From: Nitrospinota bacterium
GTDB taxonomy: Bacteria; UBA8248
Direction: 5' to 3'
NCBI GenBank assembly: GCA_026706735.1
Contig: JAPOYD010000021.1
Location: 5,659-69,658 of the forward strand
DNA length: 64,000 nucleotides
In this document: positions 4,261-64,000 of the stretch, in pieces
How positions within the stretch are numbered: position 1 is the first letter of the stretch
Layout: each line of letters starts with the position of its first letter
Program-made: the position numbers and the translations under genes
Notes under the pieces: model-generated
Databases searched by the model: none
The model's input: the letters and a program-made list of their open reading frames with translations, nothing else
Told to the model about the DNA's origin: nothing

Positions 4261-6360
<2,100 letters not shown>

Positions 6361-7377
6361 TCAGAGCGATTCGAGGCGCTTTCGGGCTGTGGACGCCGCG
6401 CTCGAATCCGGATATTTGGCAATCACCTGGCCAAGCAACTCCCGGGCGCTCGCGCGATCTTCTATGTTCAAAAACGAGAGCGCCTCCAGAAGAAGGGCCT
6501 CCGGCGCCTTGTCTCCGTTCGCGTAATCGACCTGCACCTTGTTGAACGCCAGGATGGCGCGTTCGAAATTCTTCTCCTGAAAATAGGACTGCCCTATCCA
6601 GTACTGCGCATCATCCGCTAACTCATGCGTGGGATATTTGGAGATGAACCCATTCAGCAGACCGCGCGCCTTCGCGAAATTTCTCTCATCGCGCAAGACG
6701 CGAATGGCCTGGGTGTAGTCTTCTTCCGGATCGGGGAGTCTCGGTGCGGGCGCAGGCTTCTGGGGTCGACTTGCAGGCTCTTTGGGAATGACGGCAACCC
6801 GCGCGTCTGCAACGGGCTGACCCGCTGCCTGAGCGTCCTGGCTTAGCGGCAAGCCTACGGACGCAATCCGAGGGTTGGCAGGAGGAATGCCCACAGGCGA
6901 CATTCGTGACGGCGCACCCACCGCCGTGACGACAACCTCCACTTTTTTCTGCGCAGCCACCAGGGGAGGCTTCGAGCGCAACTGGCTCACCTCATTTTCG
7001 AGCTTTTCGACCCGCTCCGTAAGTTTCGCGATTACTTCTTCGGCTTTTTCGAGAGACTTCTCGGAATCCTTACGGGCGCGTTCGACCTCGTCCGTGACTC
7101 CCTGAATGGCCTGGCGCGCTTCCTCGATGCGCTGCTCCTGGTTCCGCATCCCGCGTCTGAGCCCTTGCAGATTCTGCTCGATCGCCGCAACGTCGTCCGA
7201 TAAATTCTGCGCGGCGGCTTGAACGGACGGGGCGGGGCGAGGCGGTGAACTCGTTCCCGAGATGACTGCTCCACCAGGGTCGCCCGCAGGTGAGTTCGCC
7301 TCGGGGCAACCGAGCAAAACAAGAGAGAGCGCCGCCAACGCGAATGCCTGAAGTCTGGATGCCTTGAAAGTTTTCAT
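6361..7377 (-). CDS. cpoB: Tol-Pal system protein CpoB/YbgF (coiled coil plus C-terminal TPR).
   Basis: Signal peptide, a coiled-coil stretch (EQNLQGLRRGMRNQEQRIEEARQ...), and a C-terminal YbgF-type TPR (NFERAILAFNKVQVDYANGDKAPEALL...). It lies immediately downstream of pal. Confidence 0.8.
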   Translation of the reverse strand: MKTFKASRLQAFALAALSLVLLGCPEANSPAGDPGGAVISGTSSPPRPAPSVQAAAQNLSDDVAAIEQNLQGLRRGMRNQEQRIEEARQAIQGVTDEVERARKDSEKSLEKAEEVIAKLTERVEKLENEVSQLRSKPPLVAAQKKVEVVVTAVGAPSRMSPVGIPPANPRIASVGLPLSQDAQAAGQPVADARVAVIPKEPASRPQKPAPAPRLPDPEEDYTQAIRVLRDERNFAKARGLLNGFISKYPTHELADDAQYWIGQSYFQEKNFERAILAFNKVQVDYANGDKAPEALLLEALSFLNIEDRASARELLGQVIAKYPDSSAASTARKRLESL

Positions 7378-16646: not shown

Positions 16647-16725
16647 GGCGGTTCATACGGGGTTGCTGAAAAAGTCCTGGTTTCATGATTCTAGGTATTG
16701 GACCGACCGATAAGAGAGGAGAGTT

Positions 16726-16910
16726 CACTCCCCCCTTGAGGGTCGGGCTTCCCGAGGGAGAAAGCCCGACGGTGAACTAAGGGCGTAAGCCCGCAAGTGA
16801 ACCGGTGGGGGGTATAATTCAAAATACTCGATAAACGCGATCCACCCCCCACCGCATCAGCCTTCGCACAAAGCGCTCGGCTTCTGCGACTCCCCCTCAA
16901 GGGGGGAGTG
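16726..16910. mobile_element. MITE-like palindromic element, family 1 (TIR CACTCCCCCCTTGAGGG / CCCTCAAGGGGGGAGTG), copy A.
   Basis: 17-bp terminal inverted repeats, an internal GGTGGGGGG/CCCCCCACC inverted repeat, and a conserved core GGGCGTAAGCCCGCAAG. Three more copies lie at 44795, 61066 and 63569. Confidence 0.7.
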
Positions 16911-17042
16911 GATTTAAGATTTCTCCTTGGTGGAGAGAGCTCCATAGAGGTTATGTTCCGACTTTTTCAACAACCCCATACACAAACGACTCAAGATGCG
17001 GCATCATGCGCTTCCGACTTTCAACCATCAGGAGATAAAAAC

Positions 17043-27703: not shown

Positions 27704-27744
27704 AATATCTGACTCCTCGATAAGCCTCCTGGCAGTCCTTAATT

Positions 27745-27895
27745 CCCTGCCAAATAGCGTGTCAAATAGTGTGCCAAATAACGTATAATTAAAAGTATAT
27801 TTTTCAAATAAAATTTGACAAACATATTATAATCATATACTTATAATTATAGATGTGTTGTCAAATAGTGTGTCAAATAGTGTGTCAAATAAGGA
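27745..27895. promoter_or_regulatory. Array of about 12-bp direct repeats (TGTCAAATAGTG-like, at least 6 copies) in the AT-rich fic promoter region.
   Basis: ...tgccaaatagcg tgtcaaatagtg tgccaaataacg ... gtgttgtcaaatagtg tgtcaaatagtg tgtcaaataAGGAG. The array ends at the RBS and includes a palindromic TTCAAATAAAATTTGACAA segment. Confidence 0.4.
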
Positions 27896-27901
27896 GATAT
27901 C

Positions 27902-29092
27902 TTGGACTGGAGAAAATTCAGATTCGAATATCATTACGAACCCGCTGGTCTCACGAGCACCATTATTTCCATAGAAGCGTCCAAAGAAGCGGCCATGAGC
28001 CTCATTCTCCCTCCTGAGTGGGGGGAAACATTGAACAAGCTCAACCGTGTCCGCGCCATTCACGGCACCACGGCCATCGAAGGAAATCCCCTTTCAGAAG
28101 CCGAAGTCTCACAACAAATCGAGGCACAGGAGCAATCCGCCGATCACCAGGATGCAACGCAACTCAGCAAGGAGCAAATTCAGATTAGAAACGCCGGAGC
28201 CGCGCAAACGTGGGTCCAAGAGAGGTTCAAACCCGGCAGCGACCCCTTCACTCTCTCTGACATTTTGATCATGCACAAAATGATTACCGAGAATGCCGAC
28301 ATGACGGACAACACGCCCGGGCAGTTGAGAGCTTTTTCGGTTCAAGTTGGTAGCCCTTCTTTGGGAGGAGTTCACAGGGGCGCGCCGCATGAGGAGCTGC
28401 CCGGTTTGATGAACGAATACATCGAATTTTTGCGAGCCCGCAAAATGGAGGCGGAACACCCCGCCATTCGCGCATTACTCGCGCATTTTTTCCTGGTGAC
28501 TATCCACCCCTTCGGCGACGGAAACGGAAGAACATCCCGCCTGGTGGAGGCGGGAATCTTGTTCCGCGGGGAGTATAACGTACACGGCTTCTACGGACTG
28601 TCGAACTATTTCTATCGCCACGACGATGAATACAAGAGGCTTCTTCAAAAGTGCAGGGAAGAACAACCCTTCAATGTTACCCCGTTTATTGCTTTTGGCT
28701 TACAGGGCTTTATGGAGGAGTTGAAAGGAATCAACAATTTCATCAAGACGAAGTTGAATCGAATCGTCTATCGAAACATGCTGGTGCAGGCGCGCAACAA
28801 GAAGATATCCGAAAGGAGATACCTGATTAACGACAGGGAATATGGCCTTCTGGATTTCTTGATATCGGAGACCGAGCCTCTTGATCCGTTTTCCGAGCAA
28901 CCCTCGAAGAGCCTGAGTGTAAGTGAGTTGTTCGAATCCCCCTATATTCGAGGAGCATACAAGGAGGTATCCACAAGAACCTTTTTTAGGGAATTAGTAC
29001 GACTCGAAGAATTCGGCTTCTTGAAGCTCACAGACACGAAATCCGATGGATGGATTATGGAGTTGGATTTTGACGCTATAGGGAAATACTAA
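27902..29092 (+). CDS. fic: Fic/Doc-family protein (AMPylator with an internal inhibitory motif).
   Basis: Fic motif HPFGDGNGRTSR. The N-terminal segment TTAIEGN fits the (S/T)xxxE(G/N) auto-inhibition motif. A C-terminal winged helix follows. GC is lower than the flanks. Confidence 0.85.
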   Translation: MDWRKFRFEYHYEPAGLTSTIISIEASKEAAMSLILPPEWGETLNKLNRVRAIHGTTAIEGNPLSEAEVSQQIEAQEQSADHQDATQLSKEQIQIRNAGAAQTWVQERFKPGSDPFTLSDILIMHKMITENADMTDNTPGQLRAFSVQVGSPSLGGVHRGAPHEELPGLMNEYIEFLRARKMEAEHPAIRALLAHFFLVTIHPFGDGNGRTSRLVEAGILFRGEYNVHGFYGLSNYFYRHDDEYKRLLQKCREEQPFNVTPFIAFGLQGFMEELKGINNFIKTKLNRIVYRNMLVQARNKKISERRYLINDREYGLLDFLISETEPLDPFSEQPSKSLSVSELFESPYIRGAYKEVSTRTFFRELVRLEEFGFLKLTDTKSDGWIMELDFDAIGKY

Positions 29093-34232: not shown

Positions 34233-34270
34233 CGGGGCTGTTGGAAAAAGCCCTGAGAGGGCAAAGGCAA

Positions 34271-34421
34271 CCCCCCCTACCCCCCTTGTCAGGGGGGTAA
34301 AAAGAAAAAAGCCCCCTTGATATGAGGGAGTTATTGCAGGGGCAGGAAAAAGCAAAGCCCCCTCTGCCCGGCGGGGGCGCATCGCCTTTTTATACCCCCC
34401 TGACAAGGGGGGTAGGGGGGG
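34271..34421. mobile_element. MITE-like element, family 3: inverted copies of CCCCCCCTACCCCCCTTGTCAGGGGGGTA flanking a roughly 90-bp spacer.
   Basis: The left arm is at 34271-34299 and its reverse complement at 34393-34421. A solo copy is at 61241-61270. Confidence 0.5.
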
Positions 34422-34516
34422 TTGGTTTTCAGGGCGGTGGAATGACGAGCGGGGCGGCTTTTTCAACAGCCCCCTGGTGGGCGGGCTCTCCCGCGCAGCA
34501 CCGTCAGAAAGGATTT

Positions 34517-35727: not shown

Positions 35728-35802
35728 TTGTCCTAAAGAGAAAACCACGGGAATAGGATAATCGCGGAGGGTTGTCCATGCTGGCAAATCCGTCCACCAA
35801 GT

Positions 35803-36163
35803 CGTCATTCCGGCGAATGCCGGAATCCAGAAGAATTTCCTGATCCATGAAACAACTCTGCGTATACATTCTCGCAAGCAAGCGCAACGGTACACTCTAT
35901 ATCGGTGTTACGTCCGACCTCATCCGGCGGGTCTGGCAACACAAGAACAATGCGACGGGAGGCTTCACAAAGCGCTATGGTGTCCACACCCTGGTCTGGT
36001 ACGAGAGTCACGAAACCATGGATAGCGCGATTGTACATGAGAAGAGACTCAAAAACTGGCCAAGAGCGCGAAAGCTCTCATTGATTGAAACAGGCAATCC
36101 GAACTGGCGTGATTTGTATGAGGACCTCATCGGCTCTGGATTCCGGCATTCGCCGGAATGACG
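35803..36163 (+). mobile_element. GIY-YIG nuclease cassette bounded by inverted copies of a 28-bp palindrome (family 2: CGTCATTCCGGCGAATGCCGGAATCCAG).
   Basis: The left inverted repeat is at 35803-35830 and its reverse complement at 36136-36163. The right repeat encodes the last 7 codons and the stop of the enclosed gene. Confidence 0.55.
35847..36161 (+). CDS. GIY-YIG nuclease family protein (COG2827/UPF0213-like).
   Basis: GIY-YIG core (CVYILASKRNGTLYIGVTSDLIRRVWQH...E) in a protein of about 104 aa. Confidence 0.8.
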   Translation: MKQLCVYILASKRNGTLYIGVTSDLIRRVWQHKNNATGGFTKRYGVHTLVWYESHETMDSAIVHEKRLKNWPRARKLSLIETGNPNWRDLYEDLIGSGFRHSPE

Positions 36164-36363: not shown

Positions 36364-36503
36364 CGTCATTCCGGCGAATGCCGGAATCCAGGGGCTTTGC
36401 TTTTTGTTCTTTGGCTATTATTCCAGGCGAATGAACGAGGAAATGGAACGCCGTAATTTACCCTTCTCATCGGCTCTGGATTCCGGCATTCGCCGGAATG
36501 ACG
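36364..36503. mobile_element. Family-2 MITE-like element (a 28-bp inverted-repeat pair around an 84-bp spacer) carrying a degenerate 3' remnant of the GIY-YIG gene.
   Basis: The inverted repeats are at 36364-36391 and 36476-36503. The spacer ends ...CTCATCGGCTCTGGATTCC, matching the 3' end of the intact gene. Confidence 0.55.
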
Positions 36504-36607
36504 ATCAAAGACCGTCACGGCAACCGACTCACAGGAGTTTCCCGGCACCCCTCAAGGGGGAGTGAATTCCTTCTTCATCGCTCCCGCGGGCGGCCCTCTC
36601 GGCCCCC

Positions 36608-44624: not shown

Positions 44625-44660
44625 ACACCCCTACGGGAAAACCGGAAACAAAAAAGAAAA

Positions 44661-44687
44661 TGGATTCCGGCATGCGCCGGAATGACG
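44661..44687. repeat. Solo family-2 palindrome (TGGATTCCGGCATGCGCCGGAATGACG).
   Basis: A variant of the 28-bp inverted repeat that flanks the GIY-YIG gene. Confidence 0.5.
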
Positions 44688-44794: not shown

Positions 44795-44965
44795 CACTCC
44801 CCCCTTGAGAGGGAGTCGACGAGGTAAGGGCGTAAGCCCGCAAGCGAGTCGGTGGGGGGAGTTTCTTCAGTGGCATATCCCCCCACCGAATCGGCCTTCG
44901 CCCAAGGGCTCGGCCTCTTCGTCTGGCTTTCCCCTCGGGAAGCCAGACCCTCAAGGGGGGGAGTG
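44795..44965. mobile_element. Family-1 MITE-like element, copy B.
   Basis: CACTCCCCCCTTGAGAGGG ... CCCTCAAGGGGGGGGAGTG with the same internal core (GGGCGTAAGCCCGCAAG...GGTGGGGGG...CCCCCCACCGAATCGGCCTTCGCCC). Confidence 0.7.
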
Positions 44966-45156
44966 AAATCCAAAATCGCTTCCCGGCGGTTTTTCAACAA
45001 GCCCCGCTTCGGTCGCGATTGATCCTCAAAGGGGAGAGTGCTTTTTCTCTTCTCACCCGGCGGCGGTTTTGACACGCTTAAGCCGGGATGTGGTAAGATT
45101 TATGGTTCCCGGCCGGGGACATAAAGGCCGAATCAAACCCAAGGAGGCGTGACGCC

Positions 45157-45770: not shown

Positions 45771-46092
45771 AGGGCGGGCGTTCGTCCCGGGCGTCCGCGA
45801 ATACCACAATATGTAGTCTCAAAAAATGATTTCTTACACAATATATGGACCATCCCGACTCATCTGCGGAAAAATCACCAGAAAATTTATTTTTTACAAC
45901 AACAACTCATTATATATCAATAAGTTATAATTATTTATGCAGGAATCGCTTTAAGCGGAGGGATAAGGCCAAATTATTTTATTTCATTTAATATCAATAA
46001 ATACAACAGATTATGATGACTAATGAAAAAATTACTTGAAATAAATTCCAGGCATTTGATATATTCCGGAACGTCCCAATCCGTCCCGTCGG

Positions 46093-47556
46093 GTGTCAGC
46101 AATGACGAATCTGGAAAGAGATCTTTTCTCCCTCATCACGCTCGTCAGCAACGTGACGGAAGCGTATTCCGCCTGCTTATTCCTTGAAAACAAACGCCGT
46201 AAGACTTATCAGCTCACCACGTACCACAGCCTGAGTCCATATATTCTCGCGGATGCTTCGGTCGATGTGGGCCAGGGCTTCATGGGTTGGGTTTTGGAGA
46301 ACAACGAGCCGTTAAGCGTCAATCAGTTCGACAAAGACACCCTGGTTCTCGGCTATTACAGCAGGAATGAGGATATCAAGTCCTTCATGGCGACCCCCCT
46401 GCCTTCTTCAATCAACAAAGGGGCGCTCGCCATCGACAGCAAAAAAAGCTGGTGCTTCACGTCCAGAGACCAAAAGATACTCGCGGGGTTCGCCCAGCAA
46501 TTCGCCTATCTTGCAGACGGTGCCATGACGAGCGTTCAAATGGAGCGACGCTCCATGAACGTTCCCGCCTTCAGCAGATACCTGACTTCGCTTCGATCCA
46601 GCGAGAACGAAGGTCAATTGTTGAATGCGATATGCCAGGTACCGCGCGAGTTGCTTCCCTTCGACGCCTGCTTCCTCGTCCTCATTGACGAGGAAGCAGG
46701 CTTCCCCCGTCTTGTCCGAACTTCTGGATTTGGAGAACTCTTCCTGGGCGAAGTCACCATTAGTGAACGCGCAAGCCTGGCGGGGTATGCACTAAATAAA
46801 AAAGAAAGCTTAAGGCTCACGGATCTGAAGGGGAAAAAAGGAACCAGACCACTCTTCCATCATGATGAACCCCAGTTCGATGCGCGTTCCGCCGTGTGCC
46901 TTCCTCTCATCTCAAGAGGTGAAATTCTTGGTTGTCTGGGGTTCACTAGCAAACATCGGGCACAATTTGACGCAACTTCTATTCAACGCGGAGAAATCAT
47001 TGCCGCTATTGTGGCAGATACAATCGCAAATCGGAAAAACGATTTGCGCTGGCAAGCACGTTTAGAAATCGACACCCTCACTGGCGAACCGAATATACAG
47101 TATCTGCATTCTCGTCTTCATGAAATCATCTGCGAGGCAGAAGCAAGGGGGCGCCAACTAGCGTTGCTCAGCATCGCTCCCGATGCTTCATCAGAATTCA
47201 AGGATATATCTCAGGAAGAGGTAATTCTTCAACTCTCGAATTCGCTAAAACAATTCGCTACTGGAAATGATATTTTAGTGCGGCATGAGGGGCCCCGATT
47301 CCTCTTGTTGTTGCAAGACTCCTCCCAAGAATATGCTGAAGCTGTAGCAGACCGAATATTAAATGTCGTTGATCACACCCCCTTCTACTTCGGCGGAAAA
47401 GAGTTCGAAATCACGATTTCAATAGGTGCAGCATGTTTCCCTGAAACTGCGAGAAGCTCAAGAAACCTTATCCAATCATCTCTTGAAGCACTCGGATTCG
47501 CTCAAAAGGGGGGCGGTGTAAATCAACTTTGCTTTATGGGGGGAGATAGTTCATGA
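46093..47556 (+). CDS. Tandem-GAF sensor protein with a degenerate GGDEF domain (predicted non-catalytic).
   Basis: Two GAF-like domains, then a GGDEF fold (IDTLTGEPN..., LALLSIAPD..F, SIGAA). The catalytic site reads RHEGPRF instead of RxGG(D/E)EF. Low GC. Confidence 0.8.
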   Translation: MSAMTNLERDLFSLITLVSNVTEAYSACLFLENKRRKTYQLTTYHSLSPYILADASVDVGQGFMGWVLENNEPLSVNQFDKDTLVLGYYSRNEDIKSFMATPLPSSINKGALAIDSKKSWCFTSRDQKILAGFAQQFAYLADGAMTSVQMERRSMNVPAFSRYLTSLRSSENEGQLLNAICQVPRELLPFDACFLVLIDEEAGFPRLVRTSGFGELFLGEVTISERASLAGYALNKKESLRLTDLKGKKGTRPLFHHDEPQFDARSAVCLPLISRGEILGCLGFTSKHRAQFDATSIQRGEIIAAIVADTIANRKNDLRWQARLEIDTLTGEPNIQYLHSRLHEIICEAEARGRQLALLSIAPDASSEFKDISQEEVILQLSNSLKQFATGNDILVRHEGPRFLLLLQDSSQEYAEAVADRILNVVDHTPFYFGGKEFEITISIGAACFPETARSSRNLIQSSLEALGFAQKGGGVNQLCFMGGDSS

Positions 47557-48590
47557 AATTACATTTTGTAAAGCGTCTCAGATCTTGGATGGGGCCCAAT
47601 ATCGCGATGGACTTAGGGACAGCGAATACACTCGTTTACACAAAAAATGCCGGAATCGTTCTTGATGAACCCTCTGTTGTCGCCTTGAACTCGAATAATG
47701 GAGGAACTGTTCTCGCTGTAGGGAAAAAAGCTAAGGAAATGTACGGTCGGACTCCAGATTCCATTCGGACAATTCGCCCCATGAAAGATGGAGTAATTGC
47801 AGATTTTGACGTAACCAAAGCCATGATACGCCATTTTGTGGGTACAATAGTACCCAAAAGATCTTTCAGCCGACCTACAATGATGGTCTGTGTTCCTTCA
47901 GGAATCACCAGCGTTGAAATGAAAGCCGTAATTGATTCCGCCACTCAATGTGGGGCCGGCAAGGTCCATCTAATCGAAGAACCCATGGCTGCGGCCATCG
48001 GAAGCAAACTGCCAATCCATGAAATCGCCGGCTCTATGATTGTTGATATTGGGGGAGGAACAACCGAAATGGCCGTTATCTCTCAATATGCCGTTGCATA
48101 TTCAGAATCTCTACGCATGGCGGGAGATGCAATGGACGAATGCATACAACGCCACATCAAAAGACACCACGGTTTATCGATCGGCTCATTCGAGGCTGAA
48201 CGTGTCAAAATGGAAATCGGAGCAGCAGCTCCACTTACAGAGCCGCTTGAAATGGAAATTTCTGGCGCAGATGTTTCCACCGGCATGCCCCGCACCATCA
48301 AGTTATCCGATGAATCAGTGCGAGAAGCTCTCGACATTCCTGTGAAAGCTATTGTTGAATCAATTCGAAAAGCGCTGTCCAAAACAAGCCCTGAGTTAGC
48401 TTCAGACATTTACCGAAGAGGAATCGTTTTAGCTGGCGGAGGTTCACTCTTGAAAGGGCTCGGGACAAGGCTCCACAAAGAAACAGGTCTCCCTATTTAT
48501 AGAGTAAAAGACCCACTAACCACTGTCGTCCGTGGTACTGGACACGTACTAGACCACTTAAAAGACTTCAAGCAAGTCTGTCTGAACTGA
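47553..48590 (+). CDS. MreB/Mbl-type actin-like ATPase, a non-canonical paralog.
   Basis: Full-length MreB similarity (DLGTANTLVY, IRPMKDGVIADF, LIEEPMAAAIG, DIGGGTTE, ASDI...GIVLAGGGSLL). It overlaps the upstream stop (ATGA). No mreC/mreD lie downstream. Confidence 0.85.
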   Translation: MKLHFVKRLRSWMGPNIAMDLGTANTLVYTKNAGIVLDEPSVVALNSNNGGTVLAVGKKAKEMYGRTPDSIRTIRPMKDGVIADFDVTKAMIRHFVGTIVPKRSFSRPTMMVCVPSGITSVEMKAVIDSATQCGAGKVHLIEEPMAAAIGSKLPIHEIAGSMIVDIGGGTTEMAVISQYAVAYSESLRMAGDAMDECIQRHIKRHHGLSIGSFEAERVKMEIGAAAPLTEPLEMEISGADVSTGMPRTIKLSDESVREALDIPVKAIVESIRKALSKTSPELASDIYRRGIVLAGGGSLLKGLGTRLHKETGLPIYRVKDPLTTVVRGTGHVLDHLKDFKQVCLN

Positions 48591-48766
48591 TATCCAAGAG
48601 CACCACCCCCCCAAAACCGGGGGCCCGGTCCCATGCGCAATACCGGGTCCCCGGTCCCTTCTAGCAGAGTGACTGTAGAGAGATTTTACTATTATAAATT
48701 ATCCGGTAAAATTAACACATATTTGTCTTTGGTTTTTTAAACCTTTTGTTTCAACAGGAAAGAATA

Positions 48767-49039
48767 ATGGCTCTTTCACAACAAGGCGACTCATACTCAT
48801 TCGAGACATCCATAGAAGACATGAAACTAGTTTACAGGATACTTCATCGCCATATCGGAGAGCACCTTGAGCTTATGGATAGTGCGTTCATGGATGAATT
48901 ACAAATCGCGCTTCAAAAAAAAGCCCAAACAGAAGGAGTGGATATCGGCCATCACGGCGCATGGGACTTATGGCTGGGCAATGATGCGACAACCCCATGT
49001 GAGGAACGTGTAAAAAGACGAAAAACATTCGATAGTTAA
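48767..49039 (+). CDS. Hypothetical small protein (about 90 aa).
   Basis: An ORF downstream of the mreB-like gene with no recognisable domain. Its end overlaps the aroE stop region. Confidence 0.35.
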   Translation: MALSQQGDSYSFETSIEDMKLVYRILHRHIGEHLELMDSAFMDELQIALQKKAQTEGVDIGHHGAWDLWLGNDATTPCEERVKRRKTFDS

Positions 49040-49914
49040 CCTTCGCCTCCGAGACGTAATTCCAATGCTTTATTTAAAACTTCCATCACTATATCTGTAG
49101 GCATATCCACTCCCGTCCACATCTTCCAAGCAGCCGCTGCTTGATATACCAGCCAACCCGTTCCGTGAACAATTTGAGCGCCAGATCGTCTTGCTGCTTT
49201 TAGAAATTCCGTATCAGGAGGAACATAGACCGCATCCGAACAGATACAATCCTCAGGTATAGCGTCTTCGGGAATCGGGGTGGTCGCCATACGTTCGGTG
49301 TCTCCCCACATCCCGAGGCTTGTCGTATTCACGATAATCTCACAACCATCAGCCGCCGAATACAGATCGTCTAAGCCACTACCATTTACCTTGGAAGAAG
49401 GAACGCTCTTCTTCACAAATTGTGCCAACTCTAATGCTTTGTCATATGTTCGATTTCTAATATCAAGGTGAGCCGCTCCGCACTGGGCTATTTTGACGGC
49501 AATGGCTCTCGCTGCCCCTCCTGCACCCAAAACAAGACATTTCTTTTCCCTAGGATGCTCTCCCGTTGTTTCCTCCAAAAATCGGAGCCAACCGATACCA
49601 TCCGTATTGTGGCCGATAAGATTCCCATCTTCTTCAAAAACTATCGTGTTTACTGCACCCATCAAACGGGCATCCTCACTCAATTCATCCATGAGCTTGG
49701 CAACAGCCACCTTGTGCGGAATCGTGATTGTGAGTCCGCGAAATCCCATCGCCTGGGCTCCCCGCACGGCTTCTTCCAAAAAATCCGGGTGCACTTCATA
49801 GGCAAGATAGTGATAATTCAAACCCAACACTTCAGCCGCTTTGTTATGCAGTACAGGTGATAAAATATGGCCTGCCGGATATCCAAGAACTCCCAATGGA
49901 ATCGGATTTAGCAT
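49036..49914 (-). CDS. aroE: Shikimate dehydrogenase.
   Basis: Shikimate-binding N-domain (GNPIxHSxSP-like LGYPAGHILSPVLHN, NTIVFEEDGNLIGHNTDGIG) and a Rossmann motif GAGGAARA. Confidence 0.9.
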   Translation of the reverse strand: MLNPIPLGVLGYPAGHILSPVLHNKAAEVLGLNYHYLAYEVHPDFLEEAVRGAQAMGFRGLTITIPHKVAVAKLMDELSEDARLMGAVNTIVFEEDGNLIGHNTDGIGWLRFLEETTGEHPREKKCLVLGAGGAARAIAVKIAQCGAAHLDIRNRTYDKALELAQFVKKSVPSSKVNGSGLDDLYSAADGCEIIVNTTSLGMWGDTERMATTPIPEDAIPEDCICSDAVYVPPDTEFLKAARRSGAQIVHGTGWLVYQAAAAWKMWTGVDMPTDIVMEVLNKALELRLGGEG

Positions 49915-50119
49915 GAATGTTCTCCTTCACATCATTCCATTAAGTAATACAGCATTCGTGATCAACTTGTAGCTATTAGAATATATACATAGACTAGATA
50001 TTTCGGAGTCTATTCGCAATCGAGAGATCATCGCATCTCTTTAGGTGTTTGAGAGCCTGCAAAGCTCAACATCGCACAAAAGACCAGACATCCACATACG
50101 CCACATATTTGAGGATCTC

Positions 50120-52372
50120 ATGAATGAATTTAAGGTAGCTGGGAAAAAAATCCCCAGATACGATCTGCCAGATAAAGTTGTGGGCACGGCAAAATTCGCA
50201 GCAGACGTCACTGCTGTGCAGCCCCTTGTTGGTTTAATTCTCAGAAGTCCGCTACCACACGCTCGTATCGTTTCTATGGACACGAAGGAAGCAAAAGAAA
50301 TACCGGGCGTGCGAACCGTACTGAAGGGCAATGATTGCCCCCCTCATCTTTTCGGTCTTGAGATCAAAGACATGTGCTGGCTGGCTCGCGATGGGTATGT
50401 CCGATACATCGGAGACCCTGTTGCAGCCATTGCAGCTGAATCGATGGATGCCGCTCAGGCGGCGCTAGATTCTATTCAGGTGGACTATGAAACCCTTGAA
50501 CCTGTGGTGGACCTTTTAGAAGCGCGTGATGGCAAGGGTTCACTCGTACATGAAGATTGGGAAAAAATAGGCTTAGGCCCCAATGGAGAAGGGAATGTAA
50601 TCGGTCGCTATGAAATGGCCATGGGCGATGCAAGTGCCGCTATGGAAAAAGCAGACCACATATTCGAACACACATTCCAAACCCCATACGCGCATTCTGG
50701 ATATATCGAACCTCATGCCTGTACGGTGGAGCCGGGGGCCGATGGAAAATTCACGATTTGGACAACAACGCAAGCACCCTTCGTCATCCGCGACCAAGTC
50801 GCAGCGGCTTTGGGGATTCCACTGACGAAAGTAAAAGTCATCCCTACAGAAATCGGCGGTGGATTCGGAGGTAAGATTCATTCGTTTGTTGAACACATCA
50901 TCGCATTGCTTGCTCTCAAAAGCGGGCGCACTGTGCGCCACGAGATGACGCGTGAAGACGATCATAATGGCGTCAGTCCCAGGCAAGGATTACGAATACA
51001 CTTAAAAACCGGGGTAACCTCTGATGGCAAAATTCTAGCTCGCGAAACAGATGTCATCGTCGACCACGGCGCATATGGCCCCGGCGCTCCGACCCAGGCG
51101 AGTTCCCGCATTCCAATGTTCACCAGCTGCTACAATATCCCTGATTGTTCAGTGACAATGGCGAGCGTCTACACCAACGGACCCATATGCGGCTCGGTTA
51201 GAGGACCATGCGGGCCCCAGTGCTTCTTCGCAACAGAGGTGCATCTCGACATCATCGCGCGCGAACTAGGCATCGGTCCCCTTGAAATCAGGAGAAAAAA
51301 CGCCATTCGAAAAGGCGATACCGGCTTGTTCGGTACGCAGAAAGACGACGGCATGCTCAAAGTTTTGGAAAGCACCGCCAAAGAAGGAAACTGGGGCGAG
51401 ACTATTGAAACGAATGTGGACTTGGAAGGTCCTGGCTGGAAGCTCGGTCGTGGCCTTGCCGTTAGTTTTTGGCGCGGAAGTGGCGGAGCTTCCGCGTGCA
51501 CGGCGCGCTTAAATGCAGACGGTAGCATCCAGTTACTCAGTGGCTCCGTGAACCTTACGGGCGCAACAACCTCGATGTGCCAGATTGCCGCGGAAATGAT
51601 GGGCATCGGTTTTGAGCAAGTATCTTTTGACAGCGGCGATACTGACACTGCTCCGGAATCCATCCACGCGGCGGGCAGCATGCTGACCCGCTCAATGGGC
51701 GCCGCCGTCATCGTTGCCGTAGACGATTTGAAAGAAAAAATTCGAGTCGTAGCCGCCGAAAAACTTGAAGCCGACCCGGATGATTTGAAAATAGAAGCAG
51801 GGTGTATCTCTTCGATATCTACGCCCGAGCGCTCCATGTCATTGAGTGAAGTGGCGAAAATAGCGCCAGGGATTTCAGGTTACATTATGGGCCAAGGTGA
51901 AACACAGACGCCGGCTTTTTGCCCCATCTACACAGCGCAAATCGCGGAGGTGGCCGTGAATCTGGATTCGGGTGAGGTTAAAATTTTGAGGCTGATTTGT
52001 TCACAGGACGTGGGCTTCGCCATGAACCCGACTTCCGTCGTCGGCCAAATGGAAGGTGGGATGCTTCAGGGAATCGGTTTGGCGCTTATGGAGGAACAGC
52101 CTCGAGACGAGGCCGGCAATATCTTTGGCGGAACTCTCCATGAATATCTTCTGCCCACCAGTCTGGATGTACCCGAGTTGAAAACCGTAATGGTTGAGAA
52201 CAAGGCGGATGATACGCCTTATGGTATGAGAGGTGTCGGTGAACCGCCCATACTTGCAGCCCCCGCTGCCATCATGAACGCCATCGCCGATGCGGTGGAG
52301 ACTCGATTTTTTAATATCCCGGTGGGCCCGCATCACATATGCGAAGCGATCGGAAAAAAGAGCGAAACATAG
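50120..52372 (+). CDS. Xanthine dehydrogenase/aldehyde oxidase family molybdopterin-binding subunit (orphan large subunit).
   Basis: An a/b-hammerhead N-terminus and a MoCo-binding core of about 750 aa. No adjacent [2Fe-2S] or FAD subunit genes. The start is trimmed to the ATG at 50120. Confidence 0.85.
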   Translation: MNEFKVAGKKIPRYDLPDKVVGTAKFAADVTAVQPLVGLILRSPLPHARIVSMDTKEAKEIPGVRTVLKGNDCPPHLFGLEIKDMCWLARDGYVRYIGDPVAAIAAESMDAAQAALDSIQVDYETLEPVVDLLEARDGKGSLVHEDWEKIGLGPNGEGNVIGRYEMAMGDASAAMEKADHIFEHTFQTPYAHSGYIEPHACTVEPGADGKFTIWTTTQAPFVIRDQVAAALGIPLTKVKVIPTEIGGGFGGKIHSFVEHIIALLALKSGRTVRHEMTREDDHNGVSPRQGLRIHLKTGVTSDGKILARETDVIVDHGAYGPGAPTQASSRIPMFTSCYNIPDCSVTMASVYTNGPICGSVRGPCGPQCFFATEVHLDIIARELGIGPLEIRRKNAIRKGDTGLFGTQKDDGMLKVLESTAKEGNWGETIETNVDLEGPGWKLGRGLAVSFWRGSGGASACTARLNADGSIQLLSGSVNLTGATTSMCQIAAEMMGIGFEQVSFDSGDTDTAPESIHAAGSMLTRSMGAAVIVAVDDLKEKIRVVAAEKLEADPDDLKIEAGCISSISTPERSMSLSEVAKIAPGISGYIMGQGETQTPAFCPIYTAQIAEVAVNLDSGEVKILRLICSQDVGFAMNPTSVVGQMEGGMLQGIGLALMEEQPRDEAGNIFGGTLHEYLLPTSLDVPELKTVMVENKADDTPYGMRGVGEPPILAAPAAIMNAIADAVETRFFNIPVGPHHICEAIGKKSET

Positions 52373-52480
52373 AAAAAGCGATAGAATTCTTAAATATACA
52401 GCATAGATGACCACTTTCGATTACTTAGACATTTTTATCGCCTTTGGGCTCGAAGGGTTTAGTTACTCTGGTATGAAGTT

Positions 52481-53398
52481 TCATGAAACTTGTGGGACTT
52501 CGGTCTGAATGGCGCGCAGAAGGTGGCCATCCAAATACCACTTCATTGCTTTAACATTCGAATCATCATTCAGAATCGTGATGGCGCCGCATCTTAGCCA
52601 TTCGTTTCTTCTTGTTCGCCAAGTCCAGATAAGCACGCCTCGACAACCGTTGAGCCAGACAGGGCTAAAAGTCAGCTTTTCTCCCATTTGGCCAAGAAGC
52701 TCCATACAAGCCATGGCTACGAAATCATCACCCGTTCTTCGCTCACCTCGGACGACAAGCTCTACACCCGGTGACATGAGCCCTTGCATCAATACCTTGT
52801 CTCGAAATCCGAGCACCTCGACAAATCGCTCGAATACCCGCGATGCTTTTTCCTGTTCATCGGTGGATGAGAAGAAAAGATTCTTTCCCCAGTACTTATG
52901 AATTTGCGCTCGTTTTTTATCCGCATTATCGGCAATTTTGAAAACCTCCTGAATTTTTACTCCCATTGTGGATGCCGCGACCCGGTCACCATCTTCGACC
53001 CCGTCCCTAAGCACGACAACAGCGCGCTGTTCGGGCGTCATGTATTGGAGAGGGAATAAAAACTCGAGCGCAACGCTTGGCCATACAGCACCCGCCTCTA
53101 TCGATTTGGTCACACCATTCGCACTTGAACCCATCGTTTGAATCAAATCGGGCAGGTCGAACTCTTTCAACTCCAACGGTTTTTTCTCTCTCAATCGAGA
53201 AAGCGCCGCTTCCGTACATGCTGTGTACAACCACTCAGGATGATCTTCAATATTTTCTAGAGCCGGGCCCATCTCAATCGCTCGCAACATGGTATCTTGG
53301 ACGATGTCATCCGCATCCAAAATGCTGCCTGTAAGCCGATAGGCGTGTTGGCGTATTACTCCCCAGTATTCTTGAGTGTATTTTTCAAGATCTATCAT
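52481..53398 (-). CDS. ECF sigma factor with a C-terminal SnoaL/NTF2-like extension (ECF41-type).
   Basis: Sigma-70 region 2 (DADDIVQDTMLRA), region 4 (TPEQRAVVVLRD), and a roughly 130-aa C-terminal extension. Confidence 0.7.
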   Translation of the reverse strand: MIDLEKYTQEYWGVIRQHAYRLTGSILDADDIVQDTMLRAIEMGPALENIEDHPEWLYTACTEAALSRLREKKPLELKEFDLPDLIQTMGSSANGVTKSIEAGAVWPSVALEFLFPLQYMTPEQRAVVVLRDGVEDGDRVAASTMGVKIQEVFKIADNADKKRAQIHKYWGKNLFFSSTDEQEKASRVFERFVEVLGFRDKVLMQGLMSPGVELVVRGERRTGDDFVAMACMELLGQMGEKLTFSPVWLNGCRGVLIWTWRTRRNEWLRCGAITILNDDSNVKAMKWYLDGHLLRAIQTEVPQVS

Positions 53399-53407
53399 TA
53401 TCGAAAC

Positions 53408-54091
53408 TCAGTCACTCGCAAACATCTCGCATAAGTCTGAAGCTACAAGCAAATGCGCCTCGGTTTTGTCCCGCACATCATTTTCGCTTACTCCAGGAGC
53501 AAGTTCACGCAGCAAGAGCCCGTCGGTCTCTACCGTAATAAACGCGAGATCAGTGATGATGACATCTACTACGCTTTTGCCTGTCAAAGGCAAAGAACAT
53601 GCCTTTACAATCTTCGGCGCACCTCGCTTTGAAACATGCTCCATTGTGAGGATAACTTTTCGGGCGCCCACGACGAGATCCATCGCACCGCCCATGCCGG
53701 ATATCATCTTGCCAGGGATCGCCCAATTTGCCAGGTCACCGTTCCCAGCGACTTCCATGGCACCGAGTATAGTCACGTCTATATGCCCGCCCCTGACCAT
53801 AGCAAATGACATGGCGCTGTCAAAAAACGAACCTCCCGGCATAATTGTCACGGTTTCTTTACCGGCATTCAGCAGGTCGGGGTCTTCATCTCCCTCGAAT
53901 GGAAAAGGGCCTACGCCCAACACCCCGTTCTCCGAATGGACAGTGACACCGTATTCCTCGGGAATGTAATTGCACACAAGAGTAGGTATACCAAGCCCGA
54001 GATTGACATAACCCCCTCGAGGCACTTCCATGGCTGCGCGCCTGGCGATATCTTGTCTGCTCAAAGGCAAATCAACTCCTCCCAAGGTCAT
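53408..54091 (-). CDS. 3-oxoacid CoA-transferase subunit B.
   Basis: CoA-transferase family I beta-subunit motifs (NLGLGIPT, GMGGAMDLV). The gene overlaps subunit A by 20 nt. Confidence 0.85.
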   Translation of the reverse strand: MTLGGVDLPLSRQDIARRAAMEVPRGGYVNLGLGIPTLVCNYIPEEYGVTVHSENGVLGVGPFPFEGDEDPDLLNAGKETVTIMPGGSFFDSAMSFAMVRGGHIDVTILGAMEVAGNGDLANWAIPGKMISGMGGAMDLVVGARKVILTMEHVSKRGAPKIVKACSLPLTGKSVVDVIITDLAFITVETDGLLLRELAPGVSENDVRDKTEAHLLVASDLCEMFASD

Positions 54092-54791
54092 TTCGTGGTC
54101 GATTCGTCATGATTTCAATAGGCTTTTCAACATCTTCACCTAAAACAACACGTTGCACAAAAATTCCAGGCGTATGCACATTTTCTGGGATAATTTCACC
54201 GACAGGAACAATCTCTTCAACTTCAGCGATAGTCACCTCGGCGGCAGTAGCCATGACGGGATTAAAATTCCGCGCGCTCATCCTGTATATCAGATTCCCA
54301 CGCTCATCTCCTTTCCAAGCCTTAACGAGAGCATAATTCGCACGAATAGGTTCTTCGAATATGTGTTCTTGCCCTTTAATTATTCTTGTCTCTTTTCCTT
54401 CAGCAACGATGGTGCCTGCTCCTGTGGGCGTGAAGAAACCACCAATGCCGGCTCCACCTGCTCGAATGCGTTCTATAAATGTTCCTTGAGGCGAGAGCTC
54501 GACTTCGATTTCCCCTCTCAAAGCTTGCTCTTCATAGACTTTGCAAGCTGGTCCCACACGACTGGCGACAATAGAGCGAATCTGCCGGTTTTCAAACATC
54601 ATACCCACGCCCCAACCGTCCACTCCACCTGCATTTGACACCAAATGGAAATCGCCGACATCTTTTCTTTCACTCAGTGCTTTACATAAATTATGGGCCA
54701 TTCCGCATATGCCAAACCCACCGATAAGAATAGATGCGCCTCTGGGAATATCCGAAACAGCTTCCATGGAACTCGTTATAATTTTGGACAA
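54072..54791 (-). CDS. 3-oxoacid CoA-transferase subunit A.
   Basis: Alpha-subunit motifs (ILIGGFGICGMAHNL, ...GGAGIGGFFTPTGAGT). Confidence 0.85.
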   Translation of the reverse strand: MSKIITSSMEAVSDIPRGASILIGGFGICGMAHNLCKALSERKDVGDFHLVSNAGGVDGWGVGMMFENRQIRSIVASRVGPACKVYEEQALRGEIEVELSPQGTFIERIRAGGAGIGGFFTPTGAGTIVAEGKETRIIKGQEHIFEEPIRANYALVKAWKGDERGNLIYRMSARNFNPVMATAAEVTIAEVEEIVPVGEIIPENVHTPGIFVQRVVLGEDVEKPIEIMTNRPRNDLGRS

Positions 54792-54875
54792 ATGAACAAC
54801 CTCGATAACAAACTTTTAATTCTTCATGCTCGAATGGCTCAAGCATTTGAACATCAATATTCTAATGGAATTTGG

Positions 54876-57086: not shown

Positions 57087-57946
57087 TTCAGATCTGCCAG
57101 GAAATCCTTCAGTTCTCTTTGCACGATGGCTGGCGCAGATACGCTCGGGAAATGACCGGCTTTCGCACATACGACCACTCTTGATTTCGTGGGTAGTACA
57201 TTCATCAATAATTTCTGTGATTTCTCGCTAAATCGCTTGCTTTCTCCTCCACGAAAAACCAGAGCAGGGCATTTTGTTCTATTCGCCCAGAAAACAGGGT
57301 CGTAATCACTCGCAGAGGAAGCCTGAAATTTACGTAATCTCAGTATTCTGCTTTTCTCATAAGGAACCCTGTAAACGCCAGTTATGCCGTCGCGTACCAG
57401 AAAATCGCTTAAGAATCGCCTCGTCCTGGCAGGTGGCCAGTTTCCTTCTTCGCTCTCCATGGTGAATTTCTGCGCTTGCGCGAGATCTTTGAACTCCATC
57501 GGGCGACTCCGAGACGCCTCCAGGTTCGCATTGGCACCTGAAGCATCACGCACAGTCGGGTCCATCAACACGGTTGCGGTGACGCGGTCCGGGCGTTTCG
57601 CAGCGACGGCCAAGGCGATTGAAGCGGCGAAGGAATGCCCCATCACCACGAATTGATCCAGCAAAAGTGCATCTGCCAAGCCAATTACGTCTCTTGCAAA
57701 ATCAGCTGCGGCGTCACCCGCACCCGGGTCATCCGTTCTTCCGAATCCTCTTTGATCCGGGCATATCATGCGTATCGAGCCCGCGCCTTCCGCCGCAGCG
57801 TTCCACATGCCACTCTGAATCAGCGAACCATGCAATGCGATAACCGGCGAGAAAAAACTTTTCTTCGCCGGTCTCCAGTCCCGGTAAAACATCTGGAAAT
57901 TCGATACCGTCTCAAAGCCAGCATACCAGCCACCTTTACTGCGCAT
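57083..57946 (-). CDS. Alpha/beta hydrolase.
   Basis: A nucleophile elbow GHSFA and an HGSLIQSGMW oxyanion region. About 287 aa. Confidence 0.8.
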   Translation of the reverse strand: MRSKGGWYAGFETVSNFQMFYRDWRPAKKSFFSPVIALHGSLIQSGMWNAAAEGAGSIRMICPDQRGFGRTDDPGAGDAAADFARDVIGLADALLLDQFVVMGHSFAASIALAVAAKRPDRVTATVLMDPTVRDASGANANLEASRSRPMEFKDLAQAQKFTMESEEGNWPPARTRRFLSDFLVRDGITGVYRVPYEKSRILRLRKFQASSASDYDPVFWANRTKCPALVFRGGESKRFSEKSQKLLMNVLPTKSRVVVCAKAGHFPSVSAPAIVQRELKDFLADLK

Positions 57947-58164
57947 TTGAACCTCTTGGTATGAGAAAGTGAATTTACACGAGGAATATTATCAAATTGG
58001 GAAAACGATGTTCCATTCCCCTGCTGAAGAATTGGCGGATAAACCATGCTCCGCCCTTTCGGCTAATCACCGAGGTTTAGGCCTCATAAAGCACGAGCGA
58101 AATAACCTCGCTCCTCGATATTCCAACTTATTCTATGGCTTTTGGGTCGTAGAGCGTAAATCCC

Positions 58165-61065: not shown

Positions 61066-61213
61066 CACTCCCCCCTTGAGGGGGAGTCAACGCGGCAAGG
61101 ACAATGTCCGCAGCCGCGTTGGTGGGGGGAGCTTTTATTTTAGAACCGTCCCCCCACCGAATCGGCCTTCGCCGGAGGCTCAGCCTCTTCGACTCCCCCT
61201 CAAGGGGGGAGTG
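61066..61213. mobile_element. Family-1 MITE-like element, copy C.
   Basis: CACTCCCCCCTTGAGGGGGAG ... CTCCCCCTCAAGGGGGGAGTG with the conserved internal core. Confidence 0.7.
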
Positions 61214-61240: not shown

Positions 61241-61270
61241 GCCTTTACTCCCCTGTCAAGGGGGGACAGG
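61241..61270. repeat. Solo family-3 repeat (TACTCCCCTGTCAAGGGGGGACAGGGGGGG).
   Basis: It matches the arms of the 34271-34421 element. Confidence 0.45.
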
Positions 61271-61336
61271 GGGGGTTGCCTTTAAGACGGAACGGGGCGA
61301 AAGATTGTCGGGAAAACAGGTGCCTCCCCAAAAAAC

Positions 61337-63568: not shown

Positions 63569-63785
63569 CACTCCCCCCTTGAGGGTTCTTGCCGTCTGAC
63601 GAGAGTGGAAATCACTCCCCCCTTGAGGGTCGGTCTTTCCTCCTCGGGAAGACCGACAGTGAGGTGAGGGCGTAAGCCCGAAAGCGAACTGGTGGGGGGA
63701 GATTTTACCCTGTGGCATGTCCCCCCACCGAATCGGCCTTCGCCCAAGGGCTCGGCCTCTTCGACTCCCCCTCAAGGGGGGAGTG
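63569..63785. mobile_element. Family-1 MITE-like element, copy D, with a tandemly duplicated left terminal inverted repeat.
   Basis: CACTCCCCCCTTGAGGG occurs at 63569 and again at about 63613. The right inverted repeat CCCTCAAGGGGGGAGTG ends at 63785. The core is conserved. Confidence 0.7.
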
Positions 63786-63856
63786 ATTCTTCCTTCTTCA
63801 TCAGTTGCCGACAACCCTCAAGGGACTGTTAAAAAACCCTGGATTGCCAGGATTGC

Positions 63857-63989: not shown

Positions 63990-64000
63990 GTGAACACCCT

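Follow-up and report, generated by a model that had tools for sequence, protein, structure and literature searches.

Family 1 is a structured palindromic repeat of which four full copies (148–185 nt, with 17-nt termini) lie in a 64-kb stretch of DNA (the window) from a metagenome-assembled genome (MAG) carrying the NCBI label Nitrospinota (by its proteins MCY3822665, MCY3822666, and MCY3822680). We consider it probable (probability about 0.6) that family 1 is a miniature, lacking an open reading frame (ORF), of a DUF559 (Vsr-like, PD-(D/E)XK) endonuclease cassette bounded by inverted hairpin arms. By comparison of the sequences, the family can be shown to be homologous to the arms of such cassettes, with its nested repeat GGTGGGGGG...CCCCCCACC marking the slot that the ORF occupies. 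The family belongs to the interspersed palindromic repeats, here with an unexpected parent that bears a nuclease.

Arm Plan of Family 1 and Its Probable DUF559-Bearing Form

Read from the outside inwards, each arm comprises a terminal hairpin resembling a repetitive extragenic palindromic (REP) sequence (ACTCCCCCC/GGGGGGAGT), a second hairpin (P2 in the left arm, P4 in the right), and a G-run or C-run. The left terminal hairpin (REP-L) is ACTCCCCC-TTGA-GGGGGAGT and the right (REP-R) is ACTCCCCC-TCAA-GGGGGGAGT. Between P2 and P4, the GGTGGGGGG...CCCCCCACC pair encloses a variable loop, which is 19–32 nt long in the window copies; the G-run is a purine mirror of the G strand of the terminal hairpin. 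Beside either terminus, a 5-nt GGAGT or ACTCC is replaceable by a 26–27 nt hairpin (TCGGnCTTTCC..GGAAGnCCGA), in both orientations.

Loci in other genomes (L numbers) that bear the element were sought by scanning GTDB species representatives with one exact pattern (CCCCCCACCGNATCNGCCTTCGC), which gave at least 116 blocks of 8 kb. Two of these loci, from Pseudohongiellaceae (L112) and Ca. Versatilivorator (L030), have REP-L, P2, and the G-run on one side of a DUF559 ORF of ~115 aa, and the C-run, P4, and REP-R on the other. Both proteins match Pfam PF04480 (E 3e-45 and 2e-41, respectively) and are 65% identical, the DUF559 proteins overall sharing ~61–65%. The ORF (~350 nt, ~115–127 aa) is situated between the G-run and the C-run, with the G-run positioned like a Shine-Dalgarno (SD) sequence. 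A further cassette (L123) was found in JAJEJD01, which is a MAG from the same lineage as the window and contains gene-less copies too (L001, L080, and L090). Its left side reads CACTCCCCCCTTGAGGGGGAGT - reverse complement of P4 - GGTGGGGGG - TAAAACGAG - ATG, leading into a DUF559 ORF of 127 aa, which is followed on the right by CCCCCCACC - P4 - ACTCCCCCTCAAGGGGGGAGTG. The inverted arms (58 + 23 nt) amount to a terminal inverted repeat (TIR) of ~85 nt, whose left arm is P4 in reverse complement; the right arm (66 nt) has 82–97% identity with the arms of gene-less copies without the added hairpin, the value for window copy 1 being 89%. Locus L124 is a partial match, with REP-L and the G-run upstream of a DUF559 ORF and a degenerate hairpin downstream (17-nt inverted repeat); past this cassette lies a second left arm whose GGTGGGGGGAAACGAGATG begins hsdM, giving it an SD-like G-run and an ATG.

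The nearest solved structure to the cassette protein is 3HRL, an 'endonuclease-like protein' (E 1.4e-27), and PMC3424549 places DUF559 in one group with Vsr and a homing endonuclease of a group I intron. A search with the L030 protein returned 6153 homologues; among the best 120 clusters, 33 include translated arm sequence at the called N or C termini (e.g., TPPLRGS..RRWGE, PPPHQPS..TPPQGGS, and PPTDSAFA). Five distant DUF559 genes (L140, L141, L143, L156, and L158), two of them picked without an arm signature in the protein, are all flanked by inverted repeats of 32–50 nt that are 82–94% complementary, lie 329–459 nt apart, and are unrelated in sequence to family 1. The arms of these distant genes nevertheless consist of a GC hairpin, in some cases joined by a second small one, and then a G-run that mirrors the purine strand of the hairpin, a design shared with the BoxC/PIT/TM intrastrand-triplex repeats. 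As background, ~10 pairs of inverted repeats (≥24 nt, no more than 700 nt apart) occur in the window; except for one weak pair they belong to repeat families, and only one ORF of the window, for a GIY-YIG nuclease, is bracketed by inverted repeats.

Certain DUF559 cassettes are inserted within genes. In L112, a complete cassette including its arms (5820–6329) is in frame within ORF 4863–7073, in the central linker of HsdS, the specificity subunit of a type I R-M system, and a second HsdS (P0140, 64% identical) has a DUF559 cassette at the same site; HsdS homologues of ~440 aa without the cassette (best ~52% identical) also lack ~45 flanking residues. In L140, a DUF559 cassette with other arms (CCCCTCTCCCGC..GGGAGAGGGG plus a GGGG run; 548–1090) lies between the biotin-carboxylase and biotinyl-carrier ORFs of an acyl-CoA carboxylase alpha subunit, and appears to split one carboxylase gene into two. 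DUF559 genes are also enriched among the targets of programmed inversion (odds ratio 14.3; PMC9881135). No link between DUF559/PF04480 and repeats was found in the literature searched.

Two side observations concern cassette structure. Within L030 (900–2320, minus strand), at least three elements stand head to tail, with tandem duplications of a ~50-nt unit (the 3' half of P2 + GGAGGGGGG + CGGCGTCGC..AGTG). The GIY-YIG ORF of the window (104 aa, 35847–36161) is part of a cassette at 35802–36163 with perfect 29-nt inverted arms (GTCATTCCGGCGAATGCCGGAATCCAG), each of which is a hairpin; the same arms recur in the window in gene-less miniatures at 36364–36503 and 63856–63990 (84 and 77 nt between arms), and as a solo arm at 44660–44686. 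The logic of this cassette and its miniatures is the same as that of DUF559 and family 1.

Folding, Covariation, and the Possibility of a Structured RNA

In P2 (~35 nt), helices and loops alternate: a 4-bp helix is followed by a GA/GA internal loop, a 3-bp helix by a purine loop, and a GGGC/GCCC helix by a GNRA-like loop. P4 (~35 nt) follows the same plan of helices and loops, but with TC/TC loops, which are GA/GA on the opposite strand. Architecturally, P2 corresponds to P4 in reverse complement, which makes the entire element a long, imperfect palindrome that has diverged. An earlier note on this DNA had described a single conserved core; conservation holds, and the core resolves into two diverged arms (P2 and P4) of one palindrome.

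The predicted fold of copy 4 has a closing stem and four hairpins (−108.8 kcal/mol; z = −8.0 on the + strand and −6.9 on the − strand), and copy 3, folded as DNA, gives z = −11.6. Among 39 distinct P2 sequences, 97% of cells are paired and two-sided changes occur in 8 of 11 pairs, matched by none of 500 shuffles, compared with at most 41% of cells paired in slid controls; among 56 distinct P4 sequences, 92% of cells are paired, with two-sided changes in 6 of 11 pairs (0/500 shuffles), these counts being of sequences rather than of independent events. The nested pairing reported by the earlier note is therefore conserved, by compensatory changes in both P2 and P4. On the + strand, P2 shows five G.T and no A.C mismatches, and P4 four G.T and 38 A.C (13 A.C when a doubtful apical pair is left out); the wobble pairs and the tandem G.A motif appear on opposite strands in the two hairpins, + in P2 and − in P4. 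Based on these counts, each arm folds best on the strand that is read from its outer end inwards. Such mirror symmetry of the arms is characteristic of inverted termini in DNA, and not of a single RNA. Anchor-based parsing also identified many combinations of P2, loop, P4, and optional-hairpin variants across loci, and one loop type occurs in both orientations relative to P2 and P4 (ACATGCCACAGAAAAAGCT in ~12 copies, AGCTTTTTCTGTGGCATGT-like in ~14); such flipped loops fit the enrichment of DUF559 genes among inversion targets.

Alternatively, the copies could act as RNA, either as a transcribed 3' stabiliser or terminator, or as a decoy or antisense regulator of the DUF559 mRNA whose untranslated regions (UTRs) they mimic. 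The strong compensatory covariation and the very stable folds (z = −8) would suit an RNA, as would the GNRA-type apical loops (GTAA, GCAA, and GCGA) and tandem G.A of P2 on the + strand; the right terminal hairpin plus a T-rich tail fits a lax terminator pattern in two of the four window copies, and in the nuclease mRNA, pairing of the G-run with the C-run would mask the putative SD. However, a search of Rfam gave no match at the gathering score and none on the copies at E≤5, no promoter-like sites were seen at copies 1, 3, and 4 (copy 2 was not scanned), and orientation relative to neighbouring genes is unbiased (43:39 and 39:38, from crude gene calls). Furthermore, the arms are mirror-symmetric, with the G.A and wobble signature of P4 on the opposite strand, and the loop flips its orientation. 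We consider an RNA role to be quite unlikely, and the stand-alone structured small RNA that the earlier note had entertained is disfavoured by the Rfam result, the unbiased orientation, and the mirror symmetry.

Two further candidates were rejected. A hammerhead-like CUGAUGAG in the left flank was ruled out, the flank being CCGACGAG or CTGACGAG with no Rfam match, and the short peptide ORFs upstream (MKKE..PP*) that end in the terminal hairpin have a variable start codon (ATG/ACG/ATA).

Copies in the Window and Their Surroundings

The four-copy repeat proposed by the earlier note is real: CACTCCCCCCTTGAGGG with up to two mismatches occurs eight times in the window against 0.00 expected (100 dinucleotide-preserving shuffles), GGTGGGGGG-N10-40-CCCCCCACC occurs four times against none expected under the same type of shuffling, and nhmmer identifies exactly four full copies. 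All four are on the + strand and can be aligned end to end. Insertion sequence (IS) ends, some possibly belonging to miniature inverted-repeat transposable elements (MITEs), adjoin several of them. In order of position, the features are as follows.

16659–16725, + strand: left end of an IS1182-like IS or its MITE (TIR GGGGTTGCTGAAAAAG...), adjoining copy 1
16726–16910, + strand: copy 1, 185 nt; REP-L 16726–16742, optional hairpin 16743–16769, P2 16770–16804, G-run 16804–16812, loop 16813–16844, C-run 16845–16853, P4 16853–16888, ACTCC + REP-R 16889–16910
16911–16977, − strand: right end of the same IS-derived shell (...CTTTTTCAACAACCCC), which with 16659–16725 encloses copy 1
34234–34473: IS-end/MITE repeats, with ends also at 16659, 16962, 37472, 44989, 60971, and 63822
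36549–36565, + strand: solo right terminus (CCCCTCAAGGGGGAGTG)
44795–44965, + strand: copy 2, 171 nt; REP-L 44795–44811 (one mismatch), P2 44817–44851, G-run 44851–44859, loop 44860–44878, C-run 44879–44887, P4 44887–44921, optional hairpin 44922–44947, REP-R 44948–44965
44966–45004, − strand: IS-end module (AAATCCAAAATCGCTTCCCGGCGGTTTTTCAACAAGCCCC), adjoining the right terminus of copy 2
45029–45046, + strand: degenerate solo right terminus (CCTCAAAGGGGAGAGTG), kept at the same place in the related genome L146
60971–61065, + strand: upstream of copy 3, an IS-end module (GGGTTTGTTGAAAAAT...GAGAGAGG) with a 31-nt spacer
61066–61213, + strand: copy 3, 148 nt, the minimal form; P2 61088–61121, G-run 61121–61129, loop 61130–61149, C-run 61150–61158, P4 61158–61191, REP-R 61197–61213
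63569–63585, + strand: solo left terminus (CACTCCCCCCTTGAGGG), followed by a 27-nt spacer and copy 4
63613–63785, + strand: copy 4, 173 nt; REP-L 63613–63629, optional hairpin 63630–63656, P2 63657–63691, G-run 63691–63699, loop 63700–63720, C-run 63721–63729, P4 63729–63763, REP-R 63769–63785

The coordinates first proposed hold for three copies; copy 4 properly starts at 63613, and the position formerly taken as its start, 63569, belongs to the solo left terminus, which together with CCCTCAAGGG at 63815–63824 makes an outer palindromic shell around copy 4. The termini had been described as perfect 17-bp TIRs. They are indeed inverted, as two terminal hairpins in inverted orientation, but perfection fails at copy 2, which has one mismatch on the left (GAGAG) and an additional G on the right. 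P2 of copy 3 is paired throughout, with a compensatory GGAC/GTCC apex.

All four copies adjoin other repeat families and, as had been noted from the outset, are intergenic; this follows for copies 2 and 3 from the gene calls of a matching metagenome scaffold, and for copies 1 and 4 from their placement between Pfam-supported ORFs. Copy 1 lies between genes for AnmK and an M20 peptidase, and copy 2 between those for a TolC-like OEP and a cupin, with both genes of each pair in the + direction; copy 3 is between a DUF3883 (NOV_C) gene (+) and a convergent DoxX gene, and copy 4 follows a methyltransferase gene on the − strand. The window is 99.9% identical to the matching scaffold, from ENA metagenome assembly ERZ23496111; going by the sample labels, we take the source samples to be sponge metagenomes. 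Two short-read contigs of the same population from other samples (L119 and L121) stop within family-1 copies, at window positions 44931 and 61082.

Other features of the window were also recorded. A third hairpin family (CCCCCCTTGTCAGGGGGG then TAGGGGGGG), at 34263–34429 and 61248–61279 and also in L016, L045, L125, and L146, likewise has the design of a hairpin and a mirror G-run, and could represent an arm from a different subfamily of cassettes. A low-GC region (46000–58000; 0.46–0.52 vs. ~0.60 elsewhere) starts just past the copy 2/cupin region; its first genes are GAF-GGDEF and MreB-like, and it could be an island gained by horizontal transfer. At 27736–27904, two clusters of three 12-nt direct repeats (TGTCAAATAGTG), with 87 nt between them, lie directly upstream of ORF 27902–29092, which has a Fic-type motif in its translation (HPFGDGNGRTSR); their arrangement resembles an operator or iteron array.

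Association With an IS1182-Like Element

An IS5/IS1182-like IS with an intact ~487-aa transposase (DUF772 + DDE_Tnp_1_6) was identified in seven loci (L016, L026, L039, L062, L067, L073, and L079). In all seven it is situated in the loop of a family-1 terminal hairpin, and all six loci in which both junctions are readable have a 5-bp duplication (CTCAA or TTGAG). Repeats ending in GGGGCTGTTGAAAAAG are ends or MITEs of this IS, and are the 'other repeat family' beside the copies. Inward-facing IS ends (GTTGAAAAA...TTTTTCAAC) flank 18 of 64 full copies, window copy 1 among them; 15 have one IS end, and another 15 have no IS end nearby. IS insertion specifically into terminal hairpin loops yields a mosaic of nested palindromes resembling bacterial interspersed mosaic elements (BIMEs). 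ISs of the IS1397/ISKpn1 type insert specifically into REP loops, and the IS5/IS1182-like IS resembles them in its position in a terminal hairpin loop; it differs in that it is of another IS family with another host repeat, and its ends also form shells around family-1 copies.

These IS ends raise the possibility that family 1 is a passenger, spread inside shells of IS5/IS1182-family ends, with the DDE transposase moving the composite. The 18 enclosed and 15 one-ended copies, the intact transposase in seven loci, and a possible ATAC duplication at the shell around copy 1 are in keeping with this. However, 15 of the 64 copies lack a nearby IS end, shell types are mixed with family-1 subtypes (and so do not reflect one amplified composite), copies in Acidobacteriota and Gammaproteobacteria have no shells, and the IS more often uses family 1 as its target (7/7 in the terminal hairpin loop). 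Movement chiefly as a passenger is improbable in our view.

Distribution Across Genomes and Turnover of Copies

Using nhmmer, at least 182 non-overlapping elements were identified in the pattern-selected loci, at least 69 of them near full length. Judged by record titles, the hosts include four Nitrospinota MAGs, Nitrospira, Gemmatimonadota, Latescibacterota, Acidimicrobiia, a Pseudohongiellaceae MAG (Gammaproteobacteria), and Acidobacteriota (Ca. Versatilivorator and other Terriglobia), together with many HiFi 'bacterium' chromosomes. At least three of these chromosomes belong to the window's lineage, as judged from their sharing the ≥90% cupin cluster. Termini and arms are near-identical in Nitrospinota, Acidobacteriota, Latescibacterota, Gemmatimonadota, and Gammaproteobacteria MAGs, and since several hosts are multi-megabase contigs, the spread across phyla is not a binning error. 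The isolate names presumably denote sponge and coral holobionts. No family-1 match was found among phage and plasmid vectors in IMG/VR, INPHARED, and PLSDB, and no report of such repeats in sponge symbionts in the literature searched.

In relatives (86–90% nucleotide identity), orthologous intergenic sites have different occupants. Upstream of the methyltransferase gene there is copy 4 in the window, another subtype in L126, and none in L125 up to the contig end; copy 2 is missing upstream of the orthologous cupin gene in nine of ten loci (L146–L155); and where the window has the solo terminus 36549–36565, L091 has a full copy in the corresponding region and L016 a right terminus joined to an IS end. 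There is turnover of copies at orthologous sites. The copies are not segmental duplicates of one locus, an objection that the earlier note had raised against itself, given that their flanks differ and related genomes have other copies or none at orthologous sites. Within the window's own population (99.9% identical), no presence/absence polymorphism was seen.

Two possible insertion preferences were examined and rejected: palindromic target sites (flank complementarity 4.44/12 vs. 4.34/12 in mismatched controls), and a replication-strand bias, suggested by the four same-strand copies of the window (orientation relative to GC skew 21/22/25/24 among 92 copies, with no association).

Family 1 could instead be domesticated structural DNA, namely BIME- or BoxC-like sites for nucleoid proteins, gyrase, or replication pausing that are kept by the host and immobile. 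Copies are strictly intergenic in the window, they form a BIME-like mosaic with other motifs, and their arms have the Y-block/R-block/mirror-R-block layout of BoxC/PIT triplex motifs. Against this, termini are near-identical in different phyla, sites are not conserved between species that are 86–90% identical, and a full cassette is in frame inside a gene; together these findings indicate that the element has moved recently and spread horizontally, and speak against ancient sites of the host. Host-kept, immobile DNA is a very unlikely explanation.

Comparison With Known Repeats and Selfish Elements

According to passages of Holder et al. (2015; PMC4666352), BoxC/PIT/TM repeats are abundant, of undefined origin, and tied to genomic instability. 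On that description, both they and family 1 are GC-rich, intergenic, and multi-copy, have a C-rich/G-rich hairpin followed by a mirror-repeated G block, and are linked to rearranged loci. The family-1 blocks CCCCCC/GGGGGGAG/GTGGGGGG have the correct mirror symmetry, with T opposite A; a triplex in family 1 is putative. The ITxF definition of a triplex, as given in part of the same paper, requires Y, R, and mirror-R blocks with loops of 1–6 nt (PMC4666352), whereas the second 'loop' of family 1 is a 35-nt covarying hairpin (P2/P4) and falls outside it. Family 1 is also a two-armed palindrome of 150–185 bp, rather than a unit of ~56 bp. The passages of PMC4666352 considered mention no endonuclease gene. 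In Escherichia coli K-12 (L159, NC_000913.3 1351200–1351830), the DUF559 gene ycjD overlaps one BoxC/PIT-type motif, ending within a GC hairpin (CACCCTCTCCCTGAAAGAGCGAGGGGG), and has another, the BoxC-like CCCCTCGCCCCTCTGGGGAGAGGGTTAGGGTGAGGGG, ~150 nt downstream together with a partial duplicate of the 3' coding end of ycjD; a perfect 17-bp AT-rich hairpin lies just upstream of the gene.

Bacterial MITEs (Correia/NEMIS, RPE, and ERIC) are small, non-coding, strongly folding repeats with TIRs and many copies that derive from a longer ORF-bearing element. Family 1 shares the small size, non-coding nature, inverted termini, multiple copies, and strong folding, and a full DUF559 cassette can lie in frame within genes, as is reported of Rickettsia RPEs. 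It differs in lacking a consistent target-site duplication, and in that the partners with the same arms encode DUF559, while the IS1182-like transposase has different TIRs. The term 'MITE-like' applied by the earlier note is thus apt as a description, in the sense of a shortened form of a longer ORF-bearing element, but family 1 is not a classical MITE.

The cassettes also resemble Vsr-like homing endonuclease genes (I-Bth0305I, PDB 3r3p; PMC3424549) in having a small nuclease of the Vsr/DUF559 fold as the only gene of a selfish insert. Like those genes, they are inserted in conserved genes (hsdS and the split acyl-CoA carboxylase), but no intron or intein context was seen for them, although this was without a formal test. 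We know of no homing endonuclease genes that feature long hairpin TIRs and numerous gene-less copies.

With the systems of REPs, the REP doublets termed REPINs, and their REP-associated tyrosine transposases (RAYTs), as well as with BIMEs, family 1 has in common short GC-rich extragenic hairpins, inverted pairs, solo copies, mosaics, lack of target-site duplication, and hairpin-specific ISs (passages of PMC3333891 and bioRxiv 10.1101/2021.07.10.451892). It differs from them in that the ORF-bearing relative encodes a PD-(D/E)XK (DUF559) nuclease and not a Y1/HUH enzyme, the interior has two further conserved hairpins, and the GTAG/CGTC tag that, according to part of PMC3733652, marks most REPs is missing.

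The copies could themselves be REPINs, moved via single-stranded hairpins by an undetected RAYT (Y1/HUH), with DUF559 as a neighbour or cargo. The 22-nt GC-rich end hairpins in inverted orientation, the solo hairpins, the preservation of hairpin stems by compensation, and the lack of a visible target-site duplication would all fit. So would the insertion of the IS specifically in hairpin loops, REPs being named as IS targets in the title of PMC1525189. However, tblastn with IS200 TnpA and E. coli RAYT queries, a weak test, detected neither a RAYT nor an IS200-like ORF in the 116 element-bearing loci (~0.95 Mb) and the window; the termini are CACTCC...GGAGTG, without a GTAG/CGTC tag; and there is no replication-strand bias. 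Moreover, in several phyla it is a DUF559 ORF that fills the precise interval between the arms, and the distant DUF559 genes are flanked by their own arms. A REPIN origin of family 1 is unlikely.

Possible Mode of Propagation and Points Against the DUF559 Reading

If family 1 is a miniature of the DUF559 cassette, we infer that its copies are selfish DNA of a non-autonomous kind, which a DUF559 nuclease acting in trans helps to copy or move. The nuclease substrate would be mismatch-bearing hairpins, or a triplex, extruded from the arms; Vsr recognises mismatches, which makes a mismatch-hairpin substrate plausible. Nicking at the arm hairpins or triplex could then start copying or recombination, and carriage as a passenger within IS1182-derived shells might provide a second route.

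Several observations weigh against a DUF559 parentage and mobilisation of family 1. ORF-bearing forms are rare (2 of ~130 elements in the pattern-selected loci, plus two via the protein search), and none bearing DUF559 is within the 64-kb window. No exact empty site was found among the relatives L091/L045/L016, L125/L126, and L146–L155, whose intergenic regions are too reshuffled. Target-site duplications, which the earlier note had proposed to look for, are inconsistent, with 3-nt direct repeats in 5 of 54 copies and a 4-nt repeat in 1 of 54, in flanks that are AT-rich; an AAT/AAT flank repeat is a single case, in L112. The loci were chosen via the element itself, taxonomy follows MAG labels, and the gene calls used for orientation are crude. 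To our knowledge, DUF559 has never been shown to mobilise DNA; the DDE transposase could move the copies instead, given that 18 of 64 lie between IS1182-type ends, and the arms could serve the nuclease mRNA, as modules of its 5'/3' UTRs, instead of being sites of recombination.

Implications

REP, BIME, and BoxC/PIT repeats make up a noticeable share of bacterial intergenic DNA, and several such classes have no known origin or mobilising enzyme. As far as we know, genes annotated as DUF559 'endonuclease domain-containing' occur in thousands of bacterial genomes with an undefined role. The link of one GC-rich repeat family to the widespread DUF559 gives a testable hypothesis for the origin and spread of the repeats, and a candidate function for DUF559. 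More tentatively, and with rather more doubt than belief, DUF559 genes might be the active cores of an unrecognised class of mobile or self-propagating cassettes with triplex-type arms, whose gene-less remnants would be the source of BoxC/PIT-type and similar REP-like repeats across phyla, among them this family, which unrelated sponge symbionts share. If so, these cassettes would sit inside genes without destroying them, in frame in hsdS and with the carboxylase split into two translated parts. The parallel case of GIY-YIG, a cassette that has miniatures in this same window, suggests a general theme of cassettes built around small nucleases. In practical terms, the repeats fragment short-read assemblies and produce spurious N- and C-terminal extensions in annotated proteins. 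For the host communities, near-identical arms across phyla would mark horizontal exchange within the holobiont.

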